Below, one piece after another: positions 24,479 through 47,640 of a DNA stretch of 64,000 nt. This stretch comes from Psammoneis japonica (taxonomy: Eukaryota): positions 620,001 through 684,000 of the forward strand of contig QPGO01000026.1 in the NCBI GenBank assembly GCA_008632985.1, read 5' to 3'. The position numbers and the translations under genes were made by a program. Position 1 is the first letter of the stretch, and every line of letters starts with the position of its first letter. The notes beneath the pieces are model-generated. The model did not search any database and was not told the origin of the DNA. It was given only the letters and a program-made list of their open reading frames with translations.

Positions 24479-27400
24479 TCTTATCGTATCGAGAAAGAAA
24501 CTGCTGCTTTAGCCTCCTCAGTTAGCGATGGATATGCTACCCCATGAGGGACTGCTGGGCTCATTGAAATACAATAAGTTAGAGAATTGATCTTCGGTTC
24601 TCACTTCGTAGGAATTTTTCTTTACTTGGTTCTAAAGGAATACATAGTCTATGTCCCAACATGAATCTGCTATCTCATTTCAAGTAGCACTAAGCTGCAA
24701 ATCAGGGCACATATGTTTGAGTTTGCTTCCCTGACTGAGAAAGCGCTGCCATCGGTAATCACCATCCTCATCCTCCAACGGAATTATGTGGTTTGCCCAG
24801 GGCGATCCACAAACCAAACACTGCCCATCATTGCACGGTGGGACACTGTGCAGCTTGGCCCACAACCTGCGTCAGCACAATCTTCAGCTGGTGGAGGAAG
24901 AGGCGGTAAGTCTCCAACTGAACAGACCCCCGCCCTTGCCACTCCACGCATTAAGCAGGGCATCTCTCTCGAAATGTAGCATGGGAGCCTCTTTCCTAAC
25001 ATGCTCCTCCAGCAGAGTTGCCTTTTGGCGCTTCTTTTGTCAAGAGACAATGGAGCCTTGGCCTTCAGATCCCACTTGGGCATTGCGCTCCATGACAAGT
25101 CGGCACAAAGAGATGTCCACAAGGCCATGTGCGCACCACATTTTGGCAGCACATCCAGCCACTGGCCAACCCTTGTCAACCTGCAGTGATGCAGTGGCGA
25201 CATCTCCAGGCACTGCGTGGAAATGGCATGTCCCCCCCCACCAAAAAAAAAAAACTGCAGAAGCAGATGTTGAGATTTCATGTCTTTGCACTCATTGTTG
25301 AATGAAGGCCAAGACAGACATGCGGGGCACATTTTAAGCTCTTGCTGGACTCCAGCAATTGTGCTGTTCTCTTCCATCATCCCCCCAAATTCATCTCTCG
25401 CCTGTGCTAGAGCCTCGTGCCTGACCAGGTTCACTGCATCGTCAACATCTTCTTTGTCCCTTCTGTTGTGCTCATGTGGCATGTGTTTTGATCTCGCTCG
25501 TTTGAAGAAATGCATGGAACCCACAAGGGCTCCTTGCATCCTTCATTTGCGCAGGACTGCCCAGCTGGCAGCCCCCCCCCTCCCAAGTCATCAGAAAGCT
25601 GCAGTCTTTGGAAAACAGCATTGTTTCAACTCATCCTGCAATGCTGCATTCTTCTTGCCCACTTCTGGTGGGATCAATGAAAGATCTGCTCCAACTTCAC
25701 CCATCTTTGGTTGAGAGCAATCAGACGGATCACCATCCACAACAAATTTCTCAAAGCATTCAACGAATTGCTTTTCCCTGGCAGAGACAACACCAAGCAG
25801 CTCTGAGGATTGCCAGATCTCCCAGATGGTCTGACAAGGTCCAGCTGCTCAACTTCATGGCAGCTTGATGCCGAGCCACATTTTGAAAATGGCTTGGCGG
25901 GGATGACATGGGGAGGAGCACCATTGCCAAAACAATTGACATCTTGCAGACACAGCAAAATGGCTCACAGAACCACTCATTCACTTTCATTTGATGAGGA
26001 TCCTCTTGGCCAGTGATTGCTGCTGCAGCATTGTTAATTTTTCTGTGCCTTTGATTTTCACTGGATTTTGTGGCAACTTCGCAAATCCATTTGCAGTGTT
26101 TGGCATCATTGTTGCTGTGCACATGCTTGCCTGAGTTTAATCTGGCATGACCAACAATGTTCTCAAAAATGTGGTCTCTGCACTGGCTCTTGCCATTTGC
26201 AGTTTTGCGGAAGAGCAACAGCACATCCACATTTTCTTCTGAGCTTCACTGTGACAACAGAAATTGCAAAAGTGGTTGGCCATCAGAGAGACGCGCCCAA
26301 TTGCATGTCCTGCTGAAGCAAAGACTGCCATCAACCTCAAACCCAGTTCACAGTTCTCCACATCTGAATTTTTCTTGGCATGCTGCAGCACAAAATTGTC
26401 ATCATCAATTGAAGATGCAACCAGCAAACAAAGAATTGCTGGATGCTTCAAAGCCCGTCCAAGAATGTGGTCCAATGCATCAATGGGGCTGACTTCCACA
26501 GAATCAGAGTCATCTGCTTGAGTTCTAATGTGGCCTTGCATTGTGTCTGTGAAGATTGCATGAAGAATTGCCTTGTGACCCTTTTCAGCTTGACACGGGT
26601 TGCCAGGATTCAGCACCCAATTGAGTTTGCCTGGAGCGTCACGGCCAAGCAGCATGAAAAATTCCTCAATGAGGCACGGGCCCAACAGCAGGACATCAAG
26701 TTTCAAGCTTTTCATCTCCAGGTGAAAGCCCTTGGGTGCAACAAAACAGTTGGCAAATTCAGCGTTCTGCTGCTTCAAATTTTTTGTGACAATGGCGGGA
26801 TCACCATCGCATGCATTTGTGATGGATGCGTGTTTCATTGTTGGCTCCCCCCCAACTTGCAATTTTGGCATCGTCCTTTCCATGAGCAAGGATCAGCTTT
26901 TGAACCAAAGTGCTGTGCAAGAGAAGCAACTGATTTGCATGAGATGTTGATGAGTCCAGCTGCAGTGGCAGATCTTTGTCTCCAAGGTCAACACCCAGCA
27001 ACATTCTTTTCTCGTTGTCATCTTCCACCATTGGTGCTTGGCTGCCTCCACCCGATGGGGTGTCCCCTTTTTTGTCAGCCAAATGTGCATCTTGGTGACA
27101 CCAGTCATCAAATTCTGCACTCCAACTTGCTCCACAGCTTGCAATGGTCTCTGCATCTTTGCATGAAATGAGTCATCCATCGCTCTCCAATTTGATCATG
27201 TGTTCCAGCAAATGGAGCAATTCTTGGCCAACATGGTCTGCCACTTTTGCCAATGGCATTGCAACTTCTTTTGCACCAGGAAAGTCTGGTTTCAGAAGGT
27301 GGCACTCATCATGGCAAGCAATTTTTGTGGTGGTTTGTAAAAGCGCTTTTTTGCAACAAAGTCCAAACAGAACCGCACTGAGCAAGGTTGCTTCTCAGAT

Positions 27401-27904
27401 GAAACTCAAACTTGATGCTGCATCATGTGACTAACTTGCCACCACCTTTGAAGGATAAAGTGGCTGGGTTTTGGCCAAATGGACAAGAGAAGCAGTCTCA
27501 AAATGTGCAAAAAATGCCCAAGGTGTTTGTGTTGGGAAGTGGAGTTGCTGTCTTGGGCAAGTCTCCATTTTGTGCAATTGCACCATTTCAAGCTCAAGTG
27601 CAGGTTGTTGCAAACAGCCATGAGAAGCCTCCAAAAACTGTGTCCAGTGGCAATGGTGTGGAGCAAGAGGTCACACATCATGCAGAGAGATTGAGCCCAA
27701 TCTGCAGAGGCCTTCTTCCTCCAAATGTGACAAAAAGGTGAGACACCAACAACCTGGGTGTCCCACCTGCCGTCAAGAATTTTTGAATTGCAGCCAAGGA
27801 ACTTTTCTGTTTGATCCAAGACTGCGCTGATTTGTCAAACCTGCAATTGCAAAACATTCAAAAACAAATGTCTTCATCCCTGAAGCAAACAATTTCTCTG
27901 CTGC

Positions 27905-28860
27905 CTCAGAGGTGCACAAATCGTCTGTTGTCGTTCGCACATGTGCACTCGCACACTCAGAGTGCGCACGAACAACAAAACGATGAGGTGGCTCACGCTG
28001 GTGTGTTTCGCTGTGACAGCGTGCGGTTTTGAGAGAATTTTTGTGGGGTGAAAAGCGGTTCGATCGCCAAATTCTTGCACAACATCACGACGCATCGACA
28101 ACGCATCATGCAGCTTTCTTTCGAAAGCAGAGCAGTGGCACCTCGACTTGGGGCTTCCTTCTCCATCCATGACATCTGCTTCATTTGTGATGGCAAGTGA
28201 GGTGCAGCAGGACTGTGGTTTGTGGAGAAAATGTGTGATTTAGACTTGCAGCCTGATTGTTTTTTTCTTTGCATTTGCTGTCCGGTGTTTCGTCATTGGC
28301 TTCTCTCAGGATTGATTTTCACCGGAAAGTGCACATTCCAGGCATCAAACACGTCACAAGTGACAGCACATCAAAGGTGTCTGGCAGTGTCATTGCTGTG
28401 AGTTGAACCCGAATTGGTGTGGTGGCAACTGCCAGTGTTTTTGGCTGAAGCAAAATGGAGTGCACTCTGCATTGAGCGCGTTTCTTCCGCTTTCTGCGGT
28501 TTGTGGCTTTGTCATCTGCATGTCAAAGAAATGCTCTCAAGTGCTCCATCATCCATTTCTTGTGCTGCCATGACCATGGGTGACATCTGTGAGTTGATCG
28601 AAGCCAAATTGCTTTGGTTGCATCCATTGTTTGGGTGATTCAAAACAGCACGCATTTCTTGCGAGCTCGTGCTCTCCACTTTTTGCAGCTCATGGTTTGG
28701 ATGGCTGCATGTTAAAGACACATTCTCACAGACTCTGTCATCTGTTTTTTTGTTGTTGCCAAGGAAGCATGTGTGGGTTCATTTGACGATGATGACTCAC
28801 AACGGCGCGCAGAGCCTCATGTCTCATGAGCTTGTGTTTTCTCTGCTTTGTAAAGTGCAT
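27905..28860 (+). repeat. Long repeat, inverted relative to ~32460-33790
   Basis: 28141 cctcgacttggggcttccttctccatccatgacatctgcttcatttgtgatggcaagtga matches the reverse complement of ~33405-33465; match extends both ways. Confidence 0.85.
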
Positions 28861-30246
28861 TGCTCTTGAGGCTGTGGGACCTCGTAGCTGTGCTTTTTGA
28901 ACAGTCAGACGACTTCATGATAATTTGGTTGAAGGATCAGATTTTTCAAGAGCAATTGCGGGAAAGGGGCATTTGAATTTGTGCCGTTTGTTGGCGCCAT
29001 TGTTCTTCTGCTGCTGTCAAATGACCATGACATGAGAACCGTGGCCCTGACGTGTCTGAAGTGCATGCCAGAGGTGGATTCTTGCACATTGTTGAGAGAA
29101 CTCCTGAGTGCAAGTGGTCGAGGGTTGCCAGACAGAGTCATCAATCCTCAATCAAGGAGCACAAGTTCTGTCGACATCAAGCATCATGACACGAGTTTGC
29201 AAGTGGAGGGAGCAGCAGAGTTGTTGGATTTTGTCGAGACACTTCCTGAACAGCCTCTCTGATCTTTGGCTGACTGACAGCGGCCTTTGCCCTTTTGCTG
29301 TGCACAGAAGAGCAGAGGACATTGCCGGTTGAGAGAGGTTGAAGGAGAGACGAGCTGAATTGATCGCCAATGAAATGCCAAAAAGAACCCGAACAAAACT
29401 GAATGGTTTGTTTGGGATTCTCAATTCACTTGGACTCATTTCCTGCCCTGCCTTGAAGCCCTGTAAAGAAGGAATGCCCAAAGCCATGTGGCAAAAGCTG
29501 CTCCAGGGCCCTGCTGTAGAGGGCCCCATCTCTGCTCAGCTGGTGCTCTCTGCTGGGACCCAGCTAGAGAGACGAGAGAGTGCGCTGCCCTCTGGAGCAG
29601 AGTCTGCCCACCTGTCGCTGGCTGAAGCAATGATCCGCGCCAATGGAAAACATGGTGCAAGCACTCTCCAGTGGTCACCTCGAGCACAACACTGACATGG
29701 AAACAGGTGCACTTCCACACTTTGATTGTTGCAGCCAAGAGGGAACATGTCCACTTTGTCATGACACTTGCAACACAGCCTCAAAACAGCAACAGTTTCT
29801 GGGTGACATCTGAAGCCACTCTCCTTCTTGTCATCAGACTCATCTGCTCCATTCACAATCCCCTTGTGCACGGTGCTCAATTTCTGCACCAGTTGGGCAA
29901 CAGATGGCACCAACGGACCGGTCCATTCTGGAACAATGCATTTGCATCATCTCTTTCATTGTCCACTGCTGCTGATGATCTCATGATGTCCCCAGCTGTC
30001 CTTTCTGAAGTGAAAGAAACAACAATGCCTTGGACATCCTTTCTTGATGCCAACGGCACTTGCATGTGTCCATGCATGTTGTCTAAAGCAGCATTTTCCT
30101 CCACGACAATGCACTCAGAATCATGCACAACACCCATGCCATGGGCAGTGTCTGCATCCATGGGAGTGGCAATGTTGCCAAATGCCCCTCCAACCCCCAG
30201 GCAAAGGTTCCAACTGAACATGCCTCCATCATCTGCACTGAGGCAC

Positions 30247-31281
30247 ATGGACTGCCTCATTCCCATCCTCTCCATCAATTTGAGGTAAAAATGATGCCTT
30301 GCAACAACCATTTCACCTTTTCCTTTGAACCCTCCCCCAAGCAGACAAACAAATGATGCTCTCAATGCAACAGCAGATTCTTCGTCCCATCTGGAATGTG
30401 ACAATGACCCAACAATGGATGCGGCATTTGTGTGTCAACACACTGCTTCACAATGTTGGCACAGCACTTTTTGCATTTGCTCCAATTGCATTGGCGCAGA
30501 TCATGTGTCAGCAACTGTGACCTTGGCATGTTGCATGGAGCAAATGACACCAGCACAAGTGATTTTGCTGCTGGGCATGACAGAATGTGGATGCAAACTT
30601 GTCATTTGGTGCGCATTGCGTCACGGCGAGTTTGGAGAAATTTGGATTTCGCCCCATAAAAATTCTCTCAGAACCGCACATTGTCACAGATCTTTTTGTC
30701 GCTCATCCACGTCCGTGAGCCCAGAGGTGCACAAATCGTCTTGTCGTCTGCGCGTGTGCTTCCTTGTGCACAATCAATGTGCAAACAACAAAACGATGAG
30801 GTGGCTCATGGACGCAGAAGGGCTGCGAAAGCTCTGTGACAACGTGCTGCACGTGAGAGAATGTTTGTGGGGCGAAGTTCCAAATTTTTGCAAATTTGCC
30901 GTGACGCAACGCGCACCACATGACAAGTTTGCATCCACATTCTGCCACACCCAGCAGCACAATTGCTTGTGCTGACATCATTTGCTCCATGCAACATGCC
31001 AAGGTCACAGTTGCTGACATGTGATCTGTGCCAATGCAATTGGAGTGAATGTAAAAAGCACTGTGCCGACACTGCAAAGTGTTGCATTGACACACAAACG
31101 CCGCATCCATTGTTGGGTTGTTGTCGTGTTCCGGGTGGGATGAAGAAATCCACTGTTGCCTTGAGAGCATCATTTGTTCATCTGCTTGGGGGGGGGGATT
31201 CAAAGGAAAAGGTGAAATGGCTGTTGCAAGGCATCATTTTTACCTCAAATTGATGGAGAGGATGGGAACAAGGCAGTCTGT
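30247..31281. mobile_element. ~1.03-kb foldback/MITE-like element: ~445-bp inverted arms (30247-30690, 30833-31281) around a ~140-bp core
   Basis: Arms align end to end (cccatcctctccatcaatttgaggtaaaaatgatgccttgcaac vs its reverse complement at ~31224-31267); no TSD identified. Confidence 0.85.
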
Positions 31282-31299
31282 CAGCATCTTTGGGGCGAG

Positions 31300-32290
31300 A
31301 TGGCAAAGGGATGTGAGAAGTTTGGCCGCCGGGGTGTTGAGCGGTCATTCATGGCGCAGCTGCACAAATTACAAACAGATCTTGAGAGGATGGCAACTCG
31401 CCATTCGATTCTTCCAAAGGCTCTGCAGGTGGAAACTGCGGCTGACGGCACATTGCAAAAGCTGTCAGCTTTCCACGCACTTGTCGTTGACTTTGTTGGC
31501 TCCAACTTTCAAGAAGAATTCATGCAAACTCTGGACAACACTGTGGCCGACGGCATCTTCCAAGAGCCATGGAGCACAGATGAAATTGTTGAAAAAGCAA
31601 TGGCCAAAGACAACAAGAGATGGGAAGCAATCGCGTCATCAGCAGACAAAACATCTCAAGAGGACGCAAACAAGGAAGTGACGTGGTTCCTTGGCTGGGC
31701 AACAGCGAATGTGTGCAACCACTTTGAAACAGACTCTGAGGATGAAAAACAAGCAACAGCAATTCTTGATGAGATGGTCATTGACAAAATGGAGCTGAAA
31801 AGCTCAGCACCATCCGTTCAAGAAATGGCACATCCCAGCATTCTCAAGCTGAAAGACGAGTCTCGAGGCCACGCCGGAAAAGAGGACTGCACCCTTGTGT
31901 CTCCAAAGTTTTTCTCTTTTGGTCTGCAATTGCTGGCTGCAATCCATGGTTTCTTCAATGAAACAACAACAAAGAAGCTTGGCGATGATGGCGCGGCAGC
32001 AGCATGCGAGAAACTTGCCAACGAGGCGGTTGAATTGAGGTGGAATGATTTCACAATGTTGATTCCAGAGAGCGCATGCAACAGTGAGTGCGATGAAACC
32101 ATCGAGAGCCTTTTCGTCTTCATTGTCCAAAAAACATTTGTTGCACGTGCATCGTGAGTCGTTGATGATTTCCGGGAGGAACACACCAGCAGGTGTGCAT
32201 CAAAAGCCGTTGATGTTGCATTGCGGGAGGGATTGAAGGCAGTGGCAAAACGGGCAAGCAAAAAAGAGGATGTTGGCAAAGGAGAGTGAA
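31300..32290 (+). pseudogene. Decayed coding sequence (285-aa Tyr-free ORF), family unknown, possibly TE-borne
   Basis: Protein-like composition; frame appears to continue past TGA 32155-32157. Confidence 0.4.
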
Positions 32291-32459
32291 TGACAACAAT
32301 GCACCTTTCAATCTTGCCTTGCTGTTCATTGCCACACATTTTAAGAAGCAACACATGGCAGTCCAAACCACGCCAAAGCACATCCATGAAAACAGCACAA
32401 TGATGCTGATGCCGATGCACGGCACAAGCAAGACTGCCCACTCTGCTTCAAATGGGTCC

Positions 32460-33790
32460 CTTGAAGTTTCCCATGGCAATGGCACAAGCAGCAAACAAAA
32501 GAGTCCGTGAGAGCCTTTCTTTCACATGCAGCTGGTTGTCCAAGCCATGCACGGCAAACAGCAGATGAGACAAGCTCACAAATGTGCGCCACTTTGCTTC
32601 TCTCAAACAACAGATGCAACCAAGCCACTTCAGAACGAGTCAACTGACAGATGCTTCCTGTGGTGATGGCACAAGAAACAGATGATGGAGTCCATGAGTG
32701 TGTGTCTTCAACATGCAGCTGTCCAAGCCATGAACTGTAAAAAGTGGAGAATGCAAGCTCACAAGATGTGCGCACCTTTTTTTGAATTGCCGGGACACCC
32801 GATGCAACCCAAGCAATTTGGATTGAATGAACTGACAGACACTTCCTGTGGCAATGGCACAACAAATGGACAATGGAGCCCGTGAGAGTGCAACAATCCT
32901 TTGACATGCAGCCATCCAAGCCATGAACCGTAAAAAGCAGAGAGTGCGAGCGCACAAGAGCTGAGTGCCATTTTGCTTCGCCCAAACAACAATTGAAACC
33001 AACACAATTCAGACCCATCAACTGACAGATGCTTCCTGTGGCAATGGTGCAACAAACAGAAAATGGAGTCCGTGAGAGCATTGCTTTGATTTGCCCAAAC
33101 CACAAACTGCAACAACAGGAAAATGCAAGCTTGCAAGAGCTGTGCACCGTTTTGTGTCACCCAAACAAGACATGCAACCAAACCCATTCGGATTTGATCA
33201 ACTTGCAGTTGTGACACTGCCAGACCCCTTTGACATGTTGTAACTTGGAAGATGTTTGATGCCGGGAATGCACTCTCACCTGGCAAAATTCATCCTGAGA
33301 GAAGCCAATGACGAAACACCTGACGGCAACAACAAAGAAAAAAACACTGAGGTTGTAAATCTAAATTGCACATTTTCTCCACAACCAACAGCCCCACTGC
33401 ACTTCACTTGCCATCACAAATGAAGCAGATGTTGTAGATGGAGAAGGAAGCAGCAAGTTGAGGTGTCACAGCTCTGCTTTTGAAAGAGAGCTGCATGATG
33501 TGTTGATGATGCATGGTGTTGTTGTGTGAGATTTTGGCGATGAGCCACTTCTCGCCCCATGAAAATTCTCTCATGTGTGGCACGTCGTCACAGCCAGAAG
33601 TGCTGCCATGATCCGCCTCATTGTTTTGTTGTTCGTGCACGCACTGAGTGTGCAAATGTGCGTGTGCGAATGACAACAGACGATTTGTGCACCTCTGCGT
33701 GAGCCACCTCATTGTTTTGTCGTTCGCGTGTTGATTGCACACAAGGAAGCACACGCGCGGACGACAAGATGATTTGTGCACCTCTGTGCT
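32460..33790 (-). repeat. Inverted partner of 27905-28860, with ~4 x ~189-bp and 2 x ~90-bp tandem units
   Basis: aactgacaga..cttcctgtgg at ~32642, ~32830, ~33020; gatttgtgcacctctg at ~33682 and ~33771. Confidence 0.8.
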
Positions 33791-35986
33791 GCCTGTGCAA
33801 GACTGCCAGGTGATTTGTGTCTCCATGCCAAGTTCTGAATGAAACACAACTGAACATCCTGGATCAAAACCTCTCCAGTCATGCATCAAGTCAAGCTCTT
33901 CTTTGCTCCAAATGTTTTGCTCTTTCTCCATGTCATTCTTTGTTTTTGTGTGATGCCCCTCGCGCTGCTCTTCCTCATTTGTTTTGCCATCTCAGCACAG
34001 CACAAAGTGCGCTCTTTTGGCCCTGCTCCTTGCCAGCTGATTGCTGCACTGTGTGTGATCAACATTTGCTTTTGTTGCATTTGCCTTGCTGTTTGTCCAA
34101 CATGCTTCATTGGGGATGCAGTCTGATGGCCTTGTTCTCCTTGATGCAAACATTCTGGGTTCAGTTCCATGCATGGTCTTGCCCGGCATGTTGCTGCCAA
34201 CTGTCTCCGTTCCATGGGTCCGACCAAGTCTTTCAGTTGCCTGCATTGCACACTGAGTGGTTTCAACTCCAAAACCAAGTGCAGCATCACCTCTCCTGCC
34301 ACTGCACCACTTTTCTGCTGTTCTCTCTTCACCAGGAACACAGCAACATTCAAGTGCCAAAACATCCTCCCTTTCTGGTGGTGCACTGCTTTCTTCACTT
34401 CCTTGGGATGTTGCTCCTGTTGCCTCTCTTGCGCACAGCAGCAATGGCAGACCCAAATGATCTCATTGCCAAGCTCCCTTTTCCAATGTCACCCTTCATC
34501 TCCAGAAGCATGCTCCCTGCCAAGAGAAGGAGGAAGCTCCCCAACAATGCTCTTCTGCCATCTCAAATCCCCCCAGCTCATTTTCCCCTGCAGAGGACAA
34601 CTCATTTGGCAACAATGACTGCGACCCAATGTCTGGCTTTGCCGATGACACCCCCCCCCACCACCCACCCATTCCTGAAGTCCTTTTGGACCCAGATCCT
34701 CCTCCTCCCATGGCTTCCAAGAATGCTCCTCCTGTCAAAGTGGGGTGGCTTTCTTCAGCATTTCTTGGCCAAATGTTGCTGCATCCTTGCCTGCCCAACA
34801 GGTGGCGAGGACAACACTCCTCAGTGCCATGTGCCTGACTGCGGGGAAAAGCAGATGACAAGCAACCACCAAACCAGCACAGCCACCACCAGCATCAATG
34901 AAGCTGAAAGTGCTGTTTGACCTGCAGCCAAACACAGGGGTGAATGGCCCAAAACCTCAGGGCCAAAGTGGAAATCACATGCCCCATCATGTGATTCTGC
35001 ACCGCAACCAGGAACATGACCAAGTTGATGCTTGGCATTTGGTGTTGTGGTGCAGGGAAGCCGCACTCTGGCAGTTGTGGACATTTGACACAAAACCGTG
35101 CCCACTTGACAACCATGTCATTTGAAACAAAGTGACAAGAAACAATTGTGTGTGAATTTGTGGCAAAGTGGGTTGGCGAATGTGATGTGTGGTGTGTGCA
35201 CGTTCATTGTTCAGAGGAAAACAACAGCTCTTTTTGGGTGACAGTGGCAGCAGCTGGAGAAGAAGCACAGCGTTTGTTGGGATGAATCAAACTGCAATGC
35301 ATTGGCAGAGCAAAGGTGTCAAAAATGTGGAGAGTGTGTCCAACTCAGATGTCAACATGAAACTGCAATGAGAGTCACAGAATTGAAACACACAAAAAAT
35401 GTCAACTGGTGTGTGTGTGTGTGTGGCTTGTGTTGCAATGCAATTCAAAACAGTGGAGGGTTTAAAAAAGTGCAAATGTCAAGTTGGAAACAAGCTCAGA
35501 AATCTGATGCAGATGTCATTTTGAATGAATCTGGGGAAGGGAACAACGGCACAATGGGAGAAGATCACTTGCAAAGTGAGCTCATTTTGCAACTTCTCAT
35601 GTCACAAACTGGACAGGATGGGCAAACAGCGCAGCACAAGAACTGCCTGTTGGAACAGGAAAGAAGATGGAGGAGATGGTTGTCATGGGAAATTCCATGC
35701 AAGATGGTGGGAGCACCACATCCAGCAGCAAGTTGGGTTGGAGAGAGGGACAGAGAAATGCAGAAGCACCAACAAGTTGCTGTCCACCATTTTGGTGTTC
35801 TTTGCAGTCACCATGAGTCCAGCCACCATGAGTCCAGCAGCAGGCAGCAGGATTGTTCAATGCCTGAACACAAATGAGTGTGAAGAACTCAGCTGCTTCC
35901 AGTTGGCAAGCAGAGACTCCAGCTCTGTTGTGACTCCAACGGAGGGATGTCATGTGCCAGATTGAGCTGCAGCAGTTGTCCAGAAG

Positions 35987-36590
35987 TTGACAGGGTCAAT
36001 GTTGATGAAGGTTGTCAACAAAAGTGTGTGGCCGCATCACAAGTTCACAATCTTTGACAAGGAACTTGCAGCAGGAGGAGCGCACATGAAAATGGTTCTG
36101 CAAGAGTCAAGGAGCACAACATCTTTGCCAGAGGCATTCTGGTGTGAATGCAAAGAGGTGTTCAGAAAAACTCAACCACAAATGGAACAATGTGCAGGAC
36201 AACACAAGGAGGAGAACAGCAGGTGGGCAAAACAGCACATGTGTTTGCCAGTTGTGCACAGGATTGTCCAGTGGGCAAAGTGTCAGCTCTTTTGTTTTTG
36301 TCAATGCAGCTGCTGCTTTGGAGGGGCTGCTGGTTCAGTGTGATGATGTGATCAAGGGCAGGGCAGACAAAGACACACGTGTGTGGTTCTTGGAAACAGT
36401 GGCACCAACTGCGGTGGGCCAAGTGCAATTTGGCAGAAGCAATGCAACAGATTTGCTTGGAGAGAGGCTCGCCACATCATCAAAGGCCTTTGCTTTGCTG
36501 GCACACGTAAACTGCCATGTCATGGTGCTGGTTGACACAGCGGAGAAGTTGGAGAAGGGTGCAACAACATTGCAGGGTGCAGGAAGATGA
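35987..36590 (+). mobile_element. Decayed ORF resembling accessory proteins of diatom DNA transposons
   Basis: VWPHHKF...FW...KLNHKWNNV and ATSSKAFALLAHVNCH recall a 'T.SDEAFALL..ENY'-type motif; family from memory, unverified. Confidence 0.3.
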
Positions 36591-38688
36591 TGGCAGAAGA
36601 TGCAAAACCATCAAAGCACACGACGCAGGAAAAAGGGAAGTCAGCTGAGAGGGCCAAGGATGGGGCAAGGATGGGATTGCAAAGCACAACAAACTGCGCA
36701 AGTGGGTGACAAAAGACAGAGAGGAGAACAAGTGATTTGGTGCATGGCTCAAGGAACAGAGGCAAGAGAAGGCAAAAATGTCTGATGAGGTGGAGAAGGA
36801 GCACAAGAGAGAGGAGAAGAGGAAGGAGAGAGAGGACGGATGGGCCACTCTGAAGGGAGAAAACCTGCTTCCAGCAATGGCATGGAAGCAATTGCAGCCA
36901 TGGCAACAAACCAAACTGGCGTGTGAATGCAAATTGCAGCAAACAACAAAACCTGGAATGCAACAAAAACAAAGAGGCAAACTGCAAGGCAGCTGGCAGT
37001 CAACAACACATGGCAGTTGCAAGATTTGCTTTTGATGCAACAATGCAAGGAGACAAAGTGGTGCAGAAAGAAGTTGCAGACATGGAGGGTGGACCACAAG
37101 TGGTGAGAGATGCATGCGATGAAAGCAGTGTTGACCAATTGCCAGGATTGACTGCAATCAGCCTCACTTTGATTGCAATCGCTGTTGCAAACTTGATTGC
37201 AATGACCTGATTGTCAGGAAAGAGCTGAGGTGGCAATCACAATCGACTGTTGCAATTGATTGCAATCGAAATTCGAGCTCTTTTTACAGCCAAAACAAGC
37301 AAAATGGCTTGCAATCTGTTCATCAGACCACGCAATTGCTGCGCAAATTAAAAATTGGCCAATTGCTGTTCCACAGCAATGCAATTGACTGATTGCAATC
37401 TGATTGCTGCAGAAAACTTTGCAATCAGTTGACCCTGGATGAAAGTGCAAGGAACAGCAAATGACAAAAAAGGCTGAGAGAAGAAAATCATGGGCAAGAA
37501 CCAATGTTGGCACTTTTCAAAGTGGAGTGGAAACCAGAGTCAAGAAGCTCACAAACTCAGCTGGTTTTCAACTGATGTTCAAAGGAAGGCTTGGCTTGTG
37601 AGCTCACAATTGTCTGGGGCTGAAGTCAAGAAATGCCCAGATTGTGACAGGTGGTCAGATGACCCAGATTGTCGTCACCCCAGATGTGTTCAAAAGCTGA
37701 AGCCAAAGCACATGACTCCCAGGGAATGAGCCTGTGCACCAGATTCCAAGATTTGAAACATTTCTTGTTGTGCTTTGACACACCAAAATGTGATTTGTGC
37801 TGGAGATTTTGATGGCATGGCAAAAATGCAGTTGCCAACTTGATGTGGCTCAAAGAACTTCTGGTGTGTTTTGTGTTTTTTGCTCATGGGCGAACCAAGA
37901 GCCAATGTCAAGACTTTGAAGCCAACAAGACCTTCAAGTCACAGTGCAATGTGGCATGCAAGGTTGTTGCAAAAGCCCTGGCATTCAGAAGAAAAAAAGA
38001 GTTGCAGTGCTGGGAAAGACAGCCAATGGATGCATCCCACATGTGGAGGATGCAAAGTTCTGAAATGAAATTTGGAACAGGCACCTCGACTCACAAACAG
38101 GGCCTCATGTGGTCATGCATGATGCGCCCAACATGCCTGTGCCCACACCCTCTTCAGGTGACATGAACCATGCCCTGCCCATCTCCTGCCATGACATGCA
38201 CTGTGCAACAGCTGGTGTTGCTGCGCAACTCTGTTGGCAGACATTCGGGTTGCCTCTGGCTGCCGGTCACAGTGGCGGAGATCCGCCAATCAAGGACACT
38301 TGGCAAGGGCACCGGTGGGGTGGTGAAGCAGCCAATCTTGGTGCAAAGAGAGATGGCGGGACAGAGCATGGCCGAAGTTTGCGATTGTTGCATCTTCTCT
38401 CTCTAGCACTGCCAGGTGCTGGTGGCTGGCACATGGCCTCCGCATCACGCTGCACAGAATGACGCATGCAAAATCTCACATGGGTTGGCACTTGCTGCTA
38501 AAAATGAACTCTGCCGGGAAAAAGTCAAGAGAACGTGGTGGATTGACGGATGGTGTTCGAGCACCCCTGTGGCAGGGGAGAATGTGGTGATGTCATGGTT
38601 GCATGGCAGTTTGTGTCCCATTCATTGCATTTTTGCACAAATGTTCTTACATTTGTTCATGCATTTGTACACAAATGCTGACAGTGGC

Positions 38689-40658
38689 AGGAAAAATCCT
38701 GAACCAAGTTCTCCCCTAAAACTCCAACCACCAAAAACTGAGGGCACAGAAGCACATTTTTGGCAGCGCTCTTCTCCACACAAAAAACATGCGTTTTGAC
38801 AACTCGACCATGATGGTGCCTCATGGTTCTTCCCCATCGCCTTCCCAGGATGCCGATCCCACTGATGCCATTGCCAATGACACTGATGCAATGGGTGATG
38901 TCATTGTTCCAGTTCCCGTGGGTGCGACACATGCAAAATGAGATGCCACAAACTCACACTGTTGTTTGCATGCTCCACCGCCTCCCACAGACACCATCAC
39001 AAATTCCAAAGCTGCACCTGTGTTTTGGGCCCCTGGCATGCCTGACACTGTCACTCCTGCCCTCACTGCTGCGTGCGCTGTTGACACTGTTGTTGTCTTT
39101 TGCCAATGACGTCCACAATGAAATGCCAACAACTCACACTTCTTTCATTCTTGCCCCACCACCTCCCACAGATGCCATCACAAATTCCAATGCCGCACCT
39201 GCATTTCGGCCCCCTGGCATGCCCGGCACTGTTGCTCCTGCCCTTGCTGCTGCAGGTGCTGTTGACACTGTCATTGTCTTTTGCCAACAACATCCACAAT
39301 GAAGTGCTTGCAACTCACACTTCTTTCATTCTCGCCCCACCGCCTCCCACAGATGCTGTCACGAATTCCAACGCTGTTCCTGCGTTTTGCCCCCCTGGCA
39401 TGCCCGACACTGTCAATCCTGCCCTTGCTGCCACAGGCACTGTTGACTGTTGTTGTTTTTGCTTTGGAAGGAGCACAGTGGATGATGGCTGACCAGGAAA
39501 CCCATGCAACCACGGCCTGCTGATGGACGACACATCAATGGACATGAACAGCGCCTCTCAGTCAGCGCACGAGCGTGGTCCAATCTTTAGAATGTACAGA
39601 CACATTGTGCAGCTTTCTGCAAATTAGAAACCTGGTGACAATTGGATGGCAGGCATGCTTTCACAGTTTTTTAGTTTCAAGTTGGAGAGGTTGGCGAGTT
39701 GGCACTTGTTTGCAGGTGACTTGGCAAGGTTTCAAGTGGTGCATGTGACTTGGACACTGCTCTGGGTCATTGTGTGCAATTCCATGAGAGGCCACTCTTG
39801 CCATTTGAGTTCCACATGTGGCGCACAACACACTGTTTTTGCAAGTTGCCAAAACAGAGGCAGGTGGCAACGTGCTTTTGGCAAATGCTCGCTGTGTTTG
39901 TCACTGTCAGACCTTCAAAGCTGGTGCCATGTCGACAGCTGTGCTGCTGCTTTGCATGCCGGCACCTTCTCTGCCCGCATTCCATTGGCTGCATCCTCCT
40001 TCACATGTTGCTGCAGCTCATCTTGACACCTGCTGTCAGCTCCGATTGGCTCCACTGGGCTCTGGGTGAGCCTCAATCACCTCCAGATGGAGGAAGTTCT
40101 GCTTGGGAATGATCATCCTGAGAAAAGTTGTCACCACACCTCCTGTCATGGATGCTCCTCTGCCACGCCCACGCCCATGCAAGGAGTGTCGACCAGCGCA
40201 CTGGTGCTCGTTGATCCTGTGTTTTCGTTGTTCCAAGCAAAATCGCCTCGCTCTGCTGCCACCAGGCCCGCTTGCATCCATGGCAGTTGGAGCACGAGTG
40301 GGATTGTTCGCCTTGTTGTTGCATTGTGCTTGACTGCAGTGCTCAATGACAAATGGCGGCAATGTCGTCCACGTTCAACCTTGGATCTGATGAAAATGGG
40401 CCCAAACTTCAGGATCGCAAATGGGCTGCAACAGCGGGTTTGACGGTGCCGGCCAATGTGGGAGAGACTGCCGTGTCAGGAACGGCAGGCGGGTGTGCGT
40501 CAGGTGGTGTGGGGGACGAAGAACGGGAGGTCGTCATGGTCGAGTCGTCGAAACGCGTGATGTTTTGGTGTGTGCGCTGTCTTCCAAAAAGTGCGCTTCC
40601 GCACCCTCGGTTTTTGGTGGTTAGAGTTTTAGGGGAGCTGTGGAACAGGAATTTTTAC
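38689..40658. mobile_element. ~1.97-kb DNA transposon remnant with ~150-bp terminal inverted repeats
   Basis: 38691 gaaaaatcctg...ctcccctaaaactccaaccaccaaaaactgaggg...ctcgaccatga matches the reverse complement of ~40510-40658; superfamily and TSD not resolved. Confidence 0.8.
38937..39452 (+). repeat. ~181-bp tandem repeat x3 (probably a decayed ~60-aa coding repeat)
   Basis: aactcacact, cctcccacaga, cccctggcatgcc, ctgttgac recur in units starting ~38937, ~39117, ~39298. Confidence 0.85.
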
Positions 40659-41923: not shown

Positions 41924-42074
41924 GAGGATGCGAGACAATCACGGGATGACTCTGATGCCGCCATGGGGATAGAGTCGTCTCTCTTGGCACGAGATAATGA
42001 TGTGATGCCAGAGTTAGAATTCATTTCGATGCTCACGCCACAGTCCATGCAGGAGTCACATTGATTGATGGGTG
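41924..42074 (+). pseudogene. Duplicate fragment of the ankyrin gene (53602-53747)
   Basis: gaggatgcgagacaatcacgggatgactctga.gccgccatggggatagagtc nearly identical; CpGs largely retained. Confidence 0.9.
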
Positions 42075-42509
42075 CTGCAGTGCTTGTTGTGCACACGATG
42101 GCATCAAATCAATTTTCTCTGTGCCCTCTGCTTGTGCTTGATGTCCTTTTCCAGATCATCATCAAGAACAACAACAACAACACCTTGGGGAATGACCACA
42201 CAATGTCTTCCTCTTCACAGCTGCTGCACTTGCAAGAACAGATGGAATCAAGCCCTGCTGGTGATGGCTCATGCCGGCGCCATTTTGGCGATTCACAATG
42301 CAACACTCCCAAACCATCACCACATTGTCAGCATCCTCAAACTCTTCCTCATTGGCCGTCATGGCTGCCAGACAACAGCTTGACCTGGTGCAATTTTTCC
42401 ATTTTCCTGAAACAGCGTTCAAAAGGTGGCCCAACAAGTGCAGCAAGCCAAACACCTCATGTGTTGGTGCCGTGCTTCACCCACACCACAATCCAATGAA
42501 AAGAGGCAC
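42075..42509 (-). pseudogene. Decayed duplicate of the 3' part of the 54837-55844 gene (54789-55216)
   Basis: AAMTANEEEFEDADNVVMVWECCI vs AAMMANEEEVEDTVNVVMVRECCI. Confidence 0.9.
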
Positions 42510-42937
42510 CTCCTTCAATGGGTGTGTGAATGCACAAGTGAGTCTTGGGATGAAAATAAAAAATGCTTTCAATGCAGCACATGTTCAGTGCAGAAACCAT
42601 TTCATCTCTGGCAGAAACAACAATGTGAGACAACGGAGAATTGCAGCTGTTTTGCTGTTGAATTTTTTCAGCCTGGAAAAGTCATTGATTTAGATTCAGA
42701 CAGTGTCAGTTCTTGTTTTGATCCTTGAATGGATGCTTTTGTTGATTTGATTGGCCTCAGCATGTGATGAATCAACACCAGTGCAATTGCTGCCAATGAT
42801 GCTTGAAACAAGAAGCGCTGGCTGCCGGACCAAAAGCATTGTTTTCGAGCCATCATGGTGAAAATGACAGCAAGATTGCCTCAGTGGGCCAGAGCCAAAA
42901 ATTTGGCATGCCCCCCCATGACATCATCAGACTGTTG
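42508..42937 (-). pseudogene. Decayed duplicate of the 5' part and upstream region of the GT32 gene (13724-14170)
   Basis: LFQASLAAIALVLIHHMLRPI vs LFRVSLAVLALVLIRYMLRPI; colinear nucleotide alignment. Confidence 0.92.
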
Positions 42938-43309
42938 TGACGCACAACCCTGAGCTTGCCTCTGGGGTCCACTTCCTTGGTGCAAGGAGCCTCTTTGGCC
43001 TGTTGGGCCACAGCCAATTCCTGCCTCTCTGACACTTGTTCCACTCTCTCTCGTTTGAGGTAGAGACAAGCTTCTTGCCCATCTCCATGAAAAGCAGACA
43101 CAGGCTCAAACTTTTTCCTGAGCGCTGCTTTGTTGTCCCTTCTTTGGCACAGCTGCTTGGCACTGATTTCTGCTGCAATGCAGGCCCCGACAACCCACCC
43201 GACCTCTTTCTTTGGACCTCTTCCTTCTAAGACTTCCTCCTTGCCACACTGCCCACCATCACCCCCTCTCTTGGCAGCCTCAGAGATCCTGCTGTCGCTG
43301 CTGCCCCCC

Positions 43310-43315
43310 NNNNNN
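43310..43315. other. Assembly gap (N run inside poly-C)
   Basis: nnnnnn flanked by C runs. Confidence 0.95.
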
Positions 43316-44740
43316 CCCCCCTCCTTCCTCAATGATGGAGCACAACTTCTTTTTTGGGAAACAATTCTCTCAAGCTCCCACTGCTTTAGACTGTCTCTCT
43401 CTCTCTCTTCAGAATGGCCCTCACTCTCACCTTTGCCTGTGTGCTCTCTTTTGATGCTTCACCTCTGCCCTTGCTTCCAACCCCCGTCTTCCTCTCTGAC
43501 TCCAGCCATCTGCTCTTGTCAAATCAAAAGCACTTCCCAACCTGACACACCATCTCTGTCATGCTTGTCAACAGCATGCCATTCTTGCTGCTGCCCTTGC
43601 TGGTGCTCCTTCTGGTGTTCAAGCCACTCTTCCCTCTCTTTTGTCCTCTCCTCTTGCCAGCCTGCCACTGCAGCACTCTCTTCCACCACTTCGCAGCCTC
43701 CTTTTGTGCCTTGCCTCTGATGAGGAGTGCACTGCAGCAGCTCAGTGCAAGCTGCATCTGCCTGCACTGCTGCCCACATGCCCCATCAATGCTCCTTGTC
43801 CCTGTGGACATGCCACTCTTGATGCCTTTGGTGATCACACTTTCTTTCTTCACCTGTGAAGGCACAACAGTCACAAGTCCAAATTGTCCAGCAGCACTTG
43901 TGACACCATTTTTGTCATTGTGTGGGCCCTCAGGCCTCTTGAAAAATTGTGTCATTTGCCCAATGACACCTGGCTGATGTTGGCATTGTCACCCCTCCTC
44001 CTGCTTCCCTTGCGACCCCCTCCCACCACCATTGCATCATCGCTGTTGATGTTGCCATCCCCAAAGCTCCTTCTCATGACACTCCTCTGGGTCTCTCCCC
44101 ACCCTCTCCACTCCAGTCTCAACTGAGGATTGCAACAGGAGCATCATGAGCTCAAAGTTGCTCTTGCCTTCTGCATCCTCTGCTGATGGCTCCCTTGCTG
44201 CTGCACAATCCCTTGACAATGGCGGAATCTTCCTCCTTCGGTCCTCTCACCTTTGGTCACTTGGGTGGTCTGGGCTTCTTTTTTCATCATTCCTTCTTCA
44301 GCTTTTCTTTGCTCACTTTCTGCTCTCAACCCAAGCTCCCCAGCCTGACCCATCTGCCCTGCAACACTCTGACACTTCCTGCTCTGCTTTCTGCCATGCT
44401 CTCACCTCACCATCTCCCTTTCTGTCCTCTGCTGACTTTGCTTGGCACCAAATCACTGCTGGCCGCTTTGGCAGCACCCACCACTCTGCTTCTTCCTCCC
44501 AATGGGCCATTCAGACCCTTGGCAGCAACATTCTCCATCATTTCATTGCCCATGCGTTCGGTTTTCTCTCTGCTCTTCACACCGACTGATCTCCGATTCC
44601 TTCTTTGAAACGCCCTGCGTGCTGTTTCATGCATCCTTTCTTTGCACCCACTCCCACAGCCGCCCGTTTGCTGCCTCCCCCACAAGACTGAGCAGGCTCT
44701 CTAAATCTTTGCTTGAGGAAGTGCAAGTGAGAGACAAAAC

Positions 44741-45450
44741 TCACAGCTGCAGACACACATCAATTGAGACAAAGCTTTTACCCAGCATGGTGTTGTGCAG
44801 CTTTAGTTGGTGGCAACGCTGTCCGCCTCTTGTTCAGGTCAATTGGAAATCAACGTTCATCCAACCCCATCCATTTTTTCACAAACAAGCTCTCTGATGT
44901 GTGGGCTTGCTCGTCCCACATTCTTGCCTTGCATCGAGCCAGTCGCACAGACTGCAGGTTTTCGTCCCAACGATCCTCAAGCTCCAAATCAAACAGGTGC
45001 TTGTCAGCATGCAGCAGTTTGTTGGGACGCAACTCAAGTTTTCTTGATCAATTTGATTGCTGTCAATGGGCATCTTTCAAATTTTACAGGCACAGTGTTG
45101 CGGTGGTGGACAAGCGGGCTTTGGAGCCCGCAGCGCATGACTCACATTTTCTCTGGCCGCTCTTTCGCTGGCTTTGACGCACACCCCTGTTGCATCATCT
45201 GTTCGAAGAAACCTCCCTCCTTTGGATCGCACCCCATTTGCAATTTCCTGTGTGATGCTTGGCTTTTCTTGCTTGGTGGCCTCACGGCACCGTTTTTGAT
45301 TCTCGTCGATGGCTTCGTGAAAGAAACGATTTCATTCATGACTTCGTTTGCCTCTTCCTAAAAACACATCGAAAGGCGATGAAGGTGGGAAGTCAATCTG
45401 AGTGCAACTGGGAGTGTCCGGCAATTCGTTGGCAGTGGCAGGTTCCTTTG
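44741..45450 (-). pseudogene. Fused decayed duplicates of 47550-47860 and of the DUF6824 gene segment 50703-51123
   Basis: gcttgctcgtcccacattcttgccttgcatcgagcca shared with 47708-47744; ELPDTPSCTQIDFPPSSPFDVFLGRGKR vs ELPDAPSSVQIDFPPSSPFDVFLGKGKR; join at ~45030. Confidence 0.9.
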
Positions 45451-45499
45451 GAGAATCCGCAGCCCAACTTTCATTTGACAAGCCGGTGGCTGCAGCAGA

Positions 45500-47009
45500 G
45501 TGCAGCGATCTGGGGGGGATCACAATGACTGGTGGTGATCTGAGACATCACTGAAGCGTCGGCAGCCGGAATGCAAACTTCAACCACAGAGAATCTTCTT
45601 TCCTTTCCACCGTTGTCGCCGTTTGCTCTGACACCAATGAGTGAACTGAAGGATCTTTTGTCTTCCATTTGATGCTCATTGTTTTCTGTGCTGTCTTCAG
45701 ATGACACCAAATCTTTTGAATGTTTTCTGCTTTTCCCATTTTGCGTTGCTGCTGTTGCCACTGGCTGTTCCGCTGCCTCCTCCATCTTGACAAACAGCTC
45801 GGGGTGTGCCAGCTGCCTTGCGTCATTGCGCGCCCCTGTTCTTTCCTCCTCCGTGACCATCACTGACATCATGATCATCGTCACTCTTCTCGTTGTGATC
45901 CTTTTCACAGTGGTCATCATGGCTGGGAGATCTCTTGCACTTTCGATTTTGTCTGCCGTCGTTGACATTGTCAGCAATGTCAACATCTTTTGCTTCTCGG
46001 AAACGTTTGCCCGTGGAGTTCACACACATTTCCCCACAACCTTTGTTTTCTCCTCCCTGCTTGATGCAAACAAAGAAACGGGGCTTTCTTGCATGCTGCC
46101 AATGTTGCAGACACTCATCGCCCCTTTTCTCCACATCGGCAGCATTCAGATCATTCACCGTGCCTTTGTTGCTCTGGAGAAACTCTTGGCAATGCTTTTT
46201 TTGCAAAAACTCATAAAACTGTTGCTTCACTTCAGGTGCGTTCATGTCTCCCACCGTCTCATCACTCTGCAAAAATTCTCTCCACAGTGATGTCATTTGG
46301 CCGTCTTTTGCTTTTCTGTTTGCTCCATGTCAAAGAAGAACGGAATCGGGCGGAATGGGCTTGGGGTTGTCGGATGGCCTCTTGACACTCGTTGCCGGCG
46401 AGGATGCTTTTTCGGAGTCTCCCTGTGTGACCGTGACCTGCGCAACTGAGGACAAGTCTGTTGAAACTGGAAATGTGAAGCGGAGAAAGATGCAAGGCAG
46501 ACTTGACACAACAGAACCTTTGGAGAGAAAATCCCTCGCACCTTCACTGTGCGATTCGACGTTGCTTCTTGGTGAGACAGCCAGGGCTTGCACGGCTTGC
46601 CTTTGAGGGGTGGCTGCAAAATCAAAGGGCTGACTCACCAAGTCATCAATTTCATGGTCTGAGAAATGCAAAGCCGTCTTGTTTTCTTCGACATAGAGAG
46701 GAGAAATGATTTGTGATGATTTCATCATCAGAAGCGAGGAGGGAAAGGTGGCGGTGGCAGGACACTTCTTGCAACTTGCCTTGGAGATTCTTGACTTTTT
46801 CTTCCAGCTCTTCGATCTGCATGTCCTTCCTGGCATTGACGAGTCTCAGATCAGACTTTTCCCTTTCCAGCTCTGTGATCTGGATGTCCTTTCTCGCGTT
46901 CACGAGTTTGAGATCCGATTTGAGATCAGCAACTTCTTTTTCTTTTGACAAGAGTTCATTCCTGAAATTCCTTGTCTCAGGTGTCATGGACGAGATCGGT
47001 GTCACTCAT
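45500..47009 (-). pseudogene. Decayed gene for a coiled-coil protein with internal repeats
   Basis: KSDLKLVNARKDIQITELE / KSDLRLVNARKDMQIEELE repeat; acidic segments spread over several frames. Confidence 0.45.
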
Positions 47010-47640
47010 GGTAGATCCTGTTTGCTTGCTCAGCACGGAAGCGCTTCTCTTGCAACAAAAGACAAGGATGGTTCGCAGCAAGTTGTGTCGTGTCAGCTCT
47101 CTTTCGTGTGCTTCGTCGTGTTGTCTTCAAGAGTTTTTTTGGAATTTTTCAGATCCAGTGCAAATCTACGTTGAAATGTACGTAGCCTTTTTCATGCGCG
47201 GATGACAGCATCAGTGCTGGAGATGCATGAAACATGTGGCATGTAGAGAAATGCTGATTTGGTCGCATGGATTGCGAACTCCAAGTCTCCATTGAGCATC
47301 AGATGTTCAGATTCGAAGGTAAATAAATTCACGCCTCACCAGCGCATGACCGAGATCCATCCTTCATGTTCGCATGAAGCGTGCAGAAAGTTTTTGGCGC
47401 GCTTTGAACGTCATCAGACCCAACCATTACATTGTTGTGTTGTGTTGTCGGCACCTGCGTTCATGTGTGTGCATTGCTCGAGGGCTTCACGGATGGGATG
47501 AACCATTGTTGAATGCAGCACAAGCATGTCCTTCCGATCCATGGGACACAACACGCTGCAGACACACCGATTGACTCAAAGATTTTACCGTTGATGGTGT
47601 CATGTAGCCTCGGTTGGTGGCAATGTCATCCCACTCTTGT

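Follow-up and report, generated by a model that had tools for sequence, protein, structure and literature searches.

Introduction

The closest described counterpart of the locus reported here is found in the chlorarachniophyte Bigelowiella natans. Mutation-accumulation lines of this species yielded 231 mutations in two integrated viral regions, and 230 of them, all at TpA, were A>G or T>C (Mettrop et al., bioRxiv 10.64898/2026.01.13.699255, 2026). The same preprint reports genomic clusters that are depleted in TpA and enriched in CpA and TpG, proposes an ADAT2-like adenine deaminase, and gives a directly measured de novo rate that was elevated approximately 1000-fold in some lines (10.64898/2026.01.13.699255). 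In the present study we analyzed a 64,000-nucleotide stretch of DNA from Psammoneis japonica (contig QPGO01000026.1, positions 620,001 to 684,000; hereafter the window). It contains a dead copy of a glycosyltransferase gene in which TA and CG dinucleotides have become TG or CA, together with long domains from which TA is almost absent.

The locus resembles the B. natans system in its signature, that is, the conversion of TpA to TpG or CpA (here 60 of 80 source TA, with 6 kept), in its regional restriction, and in its long-standing clusters that are poor in TpA and rich in CpA and TpG. The two systems also differ in several respects. The host here is a diatom-like stramenopile and not a chlorarachniophyte. 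The observed/expected ratio (obs/exp) of TA is 0.04 over approximately 30 kb here, which amounts to saturation, whereas Rho is 0.45 for the nucleocytoplasmic large DNA virus (NCLDV) region of B. natans. A GC>AT component is present here (84 of 144 CG became TG or CA; CG obs/exp 0.34), but none was in excess there. Here, host-gene fragments, satellites and inverted repeats make up the identifiable targets, whereas those of B. natans are viral DNA. The rate here is a lower bound of approximately 9-fold per dinucleotide that was derived from sequence pairs and not measured de novo. Finally, an extended TAY/RTA preference (Y, pyrimidine; R, purine) is seen at our locus. The text of the preprint (10.64898/2026.01.13.699255) contains neither 'CpG' nor 'trinucleotide' and mentions neither diatoms nor flanking bases, and its supplementary tables may hold flanking-base data.

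In the repeat-induced point mutation (RIP) of ascomycete fungi, CpA is converted to TpA, which makes the DNA TA-rich and AT-rich (PMC2621366). RIP shares with our locus the transition-only, dinucleotide-specific and saturating mutation of duplicates, the destruction of reading frames, and the sharp-edged compartments. The outcome here, however, is the opposite: TA is destroyed, CA and TG are created, and the GC content is slightly raised (48.9% vs 46.3%). The source genes are also spared here, with normal TA and CG and open frames.

The decay of methylated CpG and the 'RIP-like' hypermutation that basidiomycete transposons undergo at CpG (PMC3318451) are similar to our locus in that CG becomes TG or CA on both strands, the changes are restricted to silenced or repeated DNA, and sites survive better in GC-rich flanks. 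As in methylated-CpG decay, the loss of CG observed here was symmetric (43 CA and 41 TG of 144) and confined to the compartment. These systems account for the CpG half only, and the TpA half is without a counterpart in them. The editing of retroelements by APOBEC (C>U) and ADAR (A>I) also produces deaminase-driven, clustered transitions in selfish DNA (PMC4866542), and ADAR prefers U on the 5' side of the edited A (noted in 10.64898/2026.01.13.699255). These enzymes, however, act on single-stranded complementary DNA or double-stranded RNA and leave strand-biased clusters, whereas at our locus the strands are equal, no run structure is seen, and the targets are not retro-copies.

The TpA part of the process thus works like the B. 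natans system, the CpG part works like methylated-CpG decay, and the outcome is the mirror image of RIP. A full-text search of the literature returned no report of TpA depletion or hypermutation in diatoms. One article that was considered as such a report (PMC9258296) was irrelevant, judging from its excerpt.

Results

The glycosyltransferase gene and its dead copy

The intact glycosyltransferase open reading frame (ORF), the source segment and the dead copy are listed in Table 1. There were 26 homologs of the glycosyltransferase, the best with 60% identity, and most of them carry PF04488 together with PF04572 and are of the diatom type. The C-terminal part of the protein presumably lies outside ORF 13160-14077, past an intron.

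Positions 13724-14157 and 42508-42928 aligned with 77.7% identity over 440 columns (E=6e-92), and the pair differed by 66 transitions and 12 transversions. When the bases were collapsed to purines and pyrimidines, the identity rose from 77.7% to 92.4%. In-frame stops were present in the duplicate. In our reading, 42508-42937 is a pseudogenic remnant of the nearby glycosyltransferase gene. In the intact segment and the duplicate, the dinucleotide counts were 30 vs 4 for CG, 14 vs 2 for TA, 33 vs 42 for CA, and 30 vs 52 for TG.

An earlier reading of this DNA, made from the letters alone (the sequence-only reading), had claimed that TA and CG of the gene became TG or CA in the copy. The alignment confirmed such a change for 12 of the 14 TA (7 TG and 5 CA; one more became GA and one was unchanged) and for 19 of the 30 CG (11 TG and 8 CA; 4 were kept, 3 fell in gaps and 4 had other changes). 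The single conserved TA is at 42557, within gaaaaTAaaaaa, in the TAAAA context that had been noticed before, and the second TA of the copy, at 42691, matches a CG in the source. The statement that most other sites are unchanged holds approximately, since 34 transitions and 5 transversions were found on the 325 sites that are neither TA nor CG.

We judged the polarity of the glycosyltransferase pair at the protein level and added a polarity-free repeat test, which is described in the next section. The conserved block of amino acids 78-112 contains 11 non-synonymous differences, of which the orthologs backed the intact copy at 10 and the duplicate at 0, with 1 tie. F78, T91, R95 and A107, which are invariant across all 10 sequences, are among the positions favouring the intact glycosyltransferase. 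Over the entire overlap the source was backed at 19 positions and the copy at 7, with 12 ties, and those 7 are in the unconserved N-terminus. At this protein level, no outgroup was found to carry the TG/CA states. The sequence-only reading had taken the intact gene as the ancestral state; the protein orthologs, the stops in the duplicate and the CA<->TG double differences of the repeats all agree with this. We regard the direction and the context of the change, from TA and CG to TG and CA, as almost certain.

Other duplicated fragments and repeats

Self-comparison of the window revealed 8 more duplicates of gene parts, whose sources lie in normal DNA at 47.5-55.2 kb; 7 of the copies are in TA-free DNA and 1 is at its edge, and all but one carry the changes seen in the glycosyltransferase copy. 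We pooled these with the glycosyltransferase pair, so that nine pairs were available, with 8 copies in TA-free DNA and 1 at the edge. Among the 80 source TA, 6 were kept, 33 had become CA and 27 had become TG. Among the 144 source CG, 37 were kept, 43 had become CA and 41 TG. The other dinucleotides were kept at 55-79%, and the lower of these values were those of AT, AC and GT, which overlap TA or CG.

The per-site transition fractions in the nine pairs were 0.37/0.43 for TA and 0.30/0.32 for CG, and 0.08-0.12 elsewhere, while transversions amounted to 4-10% at all site classes. TA positions had undergone transitions at 63/158 sites vs 123/1213 at other A/T (odds ratio 5.9, p=4e-19, Fisher), and CG positions at 89/288 vs 89/923 at other C/G (odds ratio 4.2, p=9e-17, Fisher). 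That is, when the substitutions were tabulated by dinucleotide, TA sites changed approximately 4 times more often than other A/T, in line with what the sequence-only reading had led us to expect. The non-target sites of the copies carried approximately 10% transitions and 6% transversions. The purine/pyrimidine-collapsed identity of the other pairs rose to 85-95%, and a self-BLAST collapsed in the same way found no more in-window sources for the remaining TA-free DNA.

Four repeat pairs lie wholly in TA-free DNA. They showed 50 CA<->TG double differences, compared with 6 in the next class and 70 in all other classes together. Such an excess is expected from independent changes at ancestral TA or CG, and this test needs no outgroup. 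In addition, the changed sites of the copies map one-to-one onto TA and CG of host genes in the window, which means that the signature arose after copying.

Some of the copies are arranged in a distinctive way. The intervals 41924-42937 and 44746-45455 are mosaics in which pieces of several genes, from both strands, directly follow one another with gaps of 0-2 bases. The pieces originate from 13.7, 47.6, 50.7, 53.6 and 54.8 kb, and the joints are at 42074/42076, 42506/42508 and 45036/45039. At the joint 42506/42508 the two sources are similar over a few bases. The joined fragments look like products of patchwork repair or template switching and not like spliced retro-copies. Domain IV begins at 42016, inside the fragment 41924-42074. 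Because the source is without TA beyond that point, the boundary may coincide with the junction 42074/42076.

A larger duplicate was also seen. The region 18240-21155 aligned with 51495-52862 in four collinear blocks, and the TA-free copy has approximately 1.7 kb extra between the first two blocks. Judging from this collinearity, 18240-21155 would be a degenerate segmental duplicate of 51.5-52.9 kb.

TA-free domains of the window

We defined a TA-free bin as a 500-bp bin with TA obs/exp <0.15. In the window 61 of 128 bins were TA-free, and they were clustered into five domains (Table 1). The scale of the phenomenon had been understated by the sequence-only reading, since the glycosyltransferase copy lies within approximately 30 kb of TA-free DNA of the window.

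We then compared the composition of 29,862 bp of TA-free domains with that of 27,701 bp of normal DNA. TA occurred 75 times in the former and 1075 times in the latter, so that its obs/exp was 0.04 vs 0.54. The obs/exp of CG was 0.34 vs 0.96, that of CA was 1.73 vs 1.18, and that of TG was 1.76 vs 1.23. The GC content was 48.9% in the TA-free domains and 46.3% in normal DNA.

The edges of the domains are sharp. At the right edge of domain III, 39672-40622 is without TA, and the next 250 bp contain 20 TA. No TA-free run longer than 250 bp was found within 1-14.4 kb or 48.4-62.5 kb. Host genes occupy the islands of normal composition that separate the TA-free domains; one such island, with TA-free DNA on both sides, holds a TDP2-like (tyrosyl-DNA phosphodiesterase 2) ORF at 23237-24478 (+). 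We are highly confident that the loss of TA and CG is restricted to the domains. In 13 metagenome loci around relatives of the glycosyltransferase (approximately 62 kb, gene-centred) there were 0 TA-free 500-bp bins, which is too little material to judge the distribution.

The relic ORF of domain III (Table 1) provides a second, independent outgroup test of polarity. It has 0 Tyr in 313 residues, whereas Tyr makes up 2.1-3.6% of five homologs. Tyr occurs in at least 2 homologs at 10 columns, and there the relic has two His (CAC and CAT), one Cys (TGC), three Phe, and one each of Trp, Ala, Leu and Val. An invariant Arg of the family, Arg244, reads His (CAT) in the relic. The family has no Pfam domain and no relative in viral_contigs.

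Table 1. Coordinates of the gene, its copies and the TA-free domains, as positions within the window.
Feature	Position	Strand	Remarks
Glycosyltransferase ORF	13160..14077	(-)	PF04488 DXD sugar-binding region, E=1.8e-8, above Pfam cut-off
Source segment, 5' part of intact glycosyltransferase gene	13724..14170	(-)	TA 14, CG 30
Dead truncated glycosyltransferase copy (5' part and ~80 bp upstream)	42508..42937	(-)	TA 2, CG 4, in-frame stops
TA-free domain I	14013..17070		Starts just upstream of glycosyltransferase gene; CpG near normal at 14.0-15.0 kb, depleted beyond
TA-free domain II	18010..23022		Degenerate collinear copies of 51.5-52.9 kb: 18240-18576, 20239-20306, 20419-20478, 20636-21155
TA-free domain III	24998..40621		15.6 kb; right edge very sharp at 40622; inverted repeats, 1-kb palindrome, 181/188-bp tandem arrays, relic ORF
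TA-free domain IV	42016..47011		Holds glycosyltransferase copy; 47012-48370 partly depleted; CpG largely retained from 45.0 kb
TA-free domain V	62507..64000		Continues past window end
Relic ORF, uncharacterised family	31216..32154	(+)	Homologs best E=1e-30, 33% identity; 10 at E<=0.001
Copy of 53602-53747	41924..42074		At edge of or just outside domain IV; not hypermutated: 7 transitions, 9 transversions, TA 3 vs 3
Mutated copy of 54789-55212	42076..42506		Adjoins glycosyltransferase copy; TA 13 to 0, CG 23 to 7
Copy of 47555-47860	44746..45036		
Mutated copy of 50715-51128 (DUF6824 gene)	45039..45455		TA 17 to 2, CG 24 to 20

Sequence context, strand symmetry and relation to CpG

The survival of TA relative to normal DNA depended on the flanking bases. 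For RTAY it was 2/318 (ATAT 0/75, ATAC 0/161, GTAC 2/82), for mixed sites, with TAY on one strand and TAR on the other, it was 30/585, and for YTAR it was 43/172 (TTAA 17/44). This pattern fits a model of two independent strands in which the A in TAY is lost a few-fold faster than the A in TAR. In the pairs, the mixed sites had A>G on the TAY strand 23 times vs 11 (p=0.058).

The two strands were equally affected. TG occurred 3286 times and CA 3235 times in the TA-free domains, and no 1-kb bin was beyond |z|=2.4. The TG and CA outcomes were not significantly clustered along the copies (runs test, 68 vs 72.4 +/- 5.3 shuffled).

The depletion of CpG was nested within that of TA. Among the 61 TA-free bins, CG obs/exp was <0.45 in 44, 0.45-0.7 in 11 and >=0.7 in 6, and CpG-poor bins made up 2 of the 62 TA-normal bins. 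The DUF6824 copy, in which TA fell from 17 to 2 and CG from 24 to 20, represents TA loss without much CpG loss. CpG survived most often in GCGC (0.90) and least often in ACGT (0.20). The bin 8501-9000 stood out as a lone CpG-poor bin in normal DNA (CG obs/exp 0.34, TA 0.37, GC dinucleotide 42).

Content of the TA-free DNA and sequencing runs

A Pfam scan of 150 of the 155 ORFs of at least 90 amino acids from TA-free DNA found no family, viral, transposon or other, above the curated cut-offs; four ORFs matched Pfam at E<0.01, each under these cut-offs. The content that could be recognized consists of host-gene fragments, the relic ORF, inverted repeats, a palindrome and tandem arrays.

Contigs from one sequencing run (X1), which have a single-copy depth of approximately 35, matched 41.9-44.9 kb with 0 differences. 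These contigs end at the N run of the window at 43309-43315, so that X1 is probably the assembly's own data and gives no independent confirmation. The summed contig depth of X1, which is not equal to copy number, was 400-7000 over 36-40.7 kb, highest in the bins of 38.7-40.7 kb, and 33-91 across 42-47 kb. Compared with the window, the X1 contigs differed by transitions at 696 places and by transversions at 297 places, with many adjacent TG>CA doubles. A region at 48674-50007, without long ORFs, had an X1 summed depth of 2279-2972 and normal TA and CG; this is possibly a multi-copy element beyond the reach of the mutational process. Most of the coverage of another run (X2) falls on the gene islands, with little on the TA-free DNA; its kind could only be guessed, and it was not used as evidence of expression. 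The sequencing runs listed as holding the window include no RNA runs.

Discussion

Proposed mechanism

We think that these observations are probably best explained by a domain-restricted, context-specific mutational process with a TpA and a CpG component. In the TpA component, A:T in 5'-TA-3' is converted to G:C, yielding TG or CA according to the strand changed, and the conversion appears fastest when a pyrimidine follows the A (TAY, which is RTA on the opposite strand). In the CpG component, C:G in 5'-CG-3' is converted to T:A, likewise yielding TG or CA. The two would be separate processes with a common target compartment and not the work of one enzyme. The host genes between the domains retain their normal composition across sharp boundaries. 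Of this picture, the sequence shows the direction of the changes, their di- and tetranucleotide context, the equality of the strands, the confinement to domains and the occurrence after duplication, whereas deamination, CpG methylation, a trigger by silencing or chromatin state and a part in genome defence are inferred.

The chemistry of the TpA component may be the enzymatic deamination of adenine to hypoxanthine in DNA, as has been proposed for B. natans, and we incline slightly toward this view. TadA-type enzymes prefer an A with U or T before it and C after it. Such a preference would fit TAY, and we take it as a lead only. The CpG component might arise from the deamination of 5-methylcytosine in methylated, silenced chromatin. 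As to the trigger, we consider the case for a chromatin state rather than sequence homology to be evenly balanced. The process might have a role in genome defence. A broader picture, which we consider less likely than not, is that diatoms, and perhaps the stramenopiles, alveolates and Rhizaria (SAR) generally, possess a natural DNA adenine deaminase system directed against silenced, repeated or invading DNA. Together with CpG methylation it would erase TpA and CpG, the two pyrimidine-purine dinucleotides that are self-complementary, and leave a heritable, TA-free and CpG-poor compartment. This would be a second, chemically distinct counterpart of RIP, possibly with a single machinery that prefers A/T-flanked YpR palindromes.

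Several points weigh against this explanation or restrict it. The evidence comes from a single window of a single genome, and the DNA runs that hold the window are all from one sample. The preference for a 3' pyrimidine derives mainly from the survivor counts, some surviving TA may be newly created, and the direct test gave p=0.058; it is therefore moderately supported. By our estimate, the rate of loss per dinucleotide was at least 9-fold higher for TA, and at least 4.6-fold higher for CG, than for other dinucleotides. Because the copies are old, these rates are lower bounds only, and they do not in themselves demonstrate a thousand-fold hypermutation or ongoing activity. As no transposon or viral domain exceeded the Pfam cut-offs in the 150 ORFs scanned, our data do not show that the process targets foreign DNA, as it does in the precedent. 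Finally, the normal TA of 48.7-50.0 kb, where the summed depth is high, means that not all repeated DNA is affected.

Alternative explanations

The same chemistry could be triggered by homology, as in fungal RIP, in which case the TA-free domains would be old repeat families that have diverged beyond recognition. Every identifiable TA-free piece is indeed duplicated (nine gene-fragment copies, inverted repeats, palindrome, tandem arrays), the summed depth over 36-40.7 kb is 400-7000 vs approximately 35 for single-copy DNA, and the other copies in X1 differ at 696 transition vs 297 transversion places, including the adjacent TG>CA doubles. However, the source copies are untouched, with normal TA and open frames, whereas in RIP neither member of a duplicate pair is spared. 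The fragment 41924-42074, at 90.7% purine/pyrimidine identity, matches the others in age and yet is unmutated, although its 151 bp may be below a length threshold. The summed depth of 42-47 kb is only 33-91, and 48.7-50.0 kb combines a high summed depth with normal TA. On balance we judge a homology trigger to be unlikely. A different proposal places the primary lesion on thymine. Oxidised derivatives of thymine and cytosine are mutagenic, and a dioxygenase of the TET/JBP type could oxidise 5-methylpyrimidines, that is, T at TpA and 5-methylcytosine at CpG, to mispairing formyl or hydroxymethyl forms, so that T>C as well as C>T would come from one enzyme. The proposal would bring the two targets together, each of which can be read as a 5-methylpyrimidine with a palindromic purine, and it would suit the finding that A/T-flanked sites were lost most in both (ATAT 0/75; ACGT 0.20 vs GCGC 0.90). 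On the other hand, the losses of TA and CpG are separable, as seen in the TA-free bins with normal CpG and in the DUF6824 copy, and the TpA changes of B. natans come without an excess of GC>AT. The sequence by itself does not separate A>G from T>C on the opposite strand. We consider oxidation of thymine to be quite improbable.

The remaining explanations dispense with a targeted process. According to one of them, TA and CG are lost from all unconstrained DNA through a genome-wide context-dependent bias, and the normal domains are simply selected genes. In its favour are the compactness of diatom genomes, the many genes in the normal domains of the window, and the lack of any Pfam family above cut-off in the 150 scanned TA-free ORFs. 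The bins between long ORFs in the normal domains, however, are the most TA-rich of all (0.77 at 7001-7500, 0.88 at 12501-13000 and 0.92 at 54001-54500), and TA-free runs longer than 250 bp are absent from 1-14.4 and 48.4-62.5 kb. Moreover, the non-functional fragment 41924-42074 and the ORF-poor region 48.7-50.0 kb retain TA, and the domain edges are sharp to within tens of bases. A bias of this kind is thus largely refuted within the window, and we regard it as very improbable. It is harder still to credit a sequencing or assembly artefact at modified bases, foreign DNA poor in TA and CG, or selection against TA. The runs holding the sequence are all from the same sample and the library type is off record, which leaves some room for an artefact; but X1 contigs at approximately 35x match 41.9-44.9 kb with 0 differences, and the copies also show transversions, indels and stops. 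The one-to-one correspondence of the changed sites with TA and CG of host genes in the window speaks against both artefact and foreign DNA. Selection is implausible on approximately 1000 TA sites in DNA without recognisable function.

Significance

Mutation directed at TpA had been described once before, in 2026 and in a chlorarachniophyte, and its saturated footprint in a diatom-like genome would make it more than a curiosity of one species. The process with its TpA and CpG components could shape approximately half of the 64-kb stretch, and its targets would be broadened from the viral DNA of the B. natans precedent to host-derived duplicates and repeats. Genome editing today relies on laboratory-evolved TadA, and a natural DNA adenine deaminase with a defined context would be of interest to that field.

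There are also consequences for annotation. As TA-free DNA is without TAA and TAG stops, it gives rise to long spurious ORFs, which account for 155 of the 262 stop-to-stop ORFs of at least 90 amino acids in the window; it can hold no Tyr codons and is a trap for gene prediction. The age of repeats and pseudogenes is badly overestimated from raw identity (77.7%, compared with 92.4% when transitions are disregarded). A scan of TA obs/exp could map the silenced compartment of such genomes.

Additional features of the window

Inverted arms are located at 27907-28787 and 32822-33697, all TA-free, and a TA-free palindrome of 1 kb at 30247-31281 has its centre near 30764. If transcribed, the inverted structure 27907-33697 could form a hairpin RNA. 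The tandem arrays in TA-free DNA are at 38929-39447 (181 bp x2.9), 32539-33078 (188 bp x2.9) and 21116-21282 (81 bp x2). A near-length search with ORF 21419-22369 found no homolog at E<=0.001. DUF6532 of Basidiomycota, considered as a lead to the content (Atlas, 0.85, 104-110 shared features), was sub-threshold and was not used.

The glycosyltransferase gene is adjoined by an ORF for a Dnmt2-type C5 methyltransferase at 11322-12560 (+) (PF00145, E=3e-40), the sole C5-methyltransferase in the window. Its homologs are named tRNA (cytosine38-C5)-methyltransferase, and the best of them, with 44-50% identity, are in Cylindrotheca, Nitzschia, Amphora and Bacillariaceae, in keeping with a diatom-like genome. 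This ORF is probably unrelated to the mutation process. Fungal RIP depends on cytosine methyltransferases of the RID/DIM-2 type and on a sexual phase. For the FabH ORF of the window, the commonest phylum in its cluster was Bacillariophyta.

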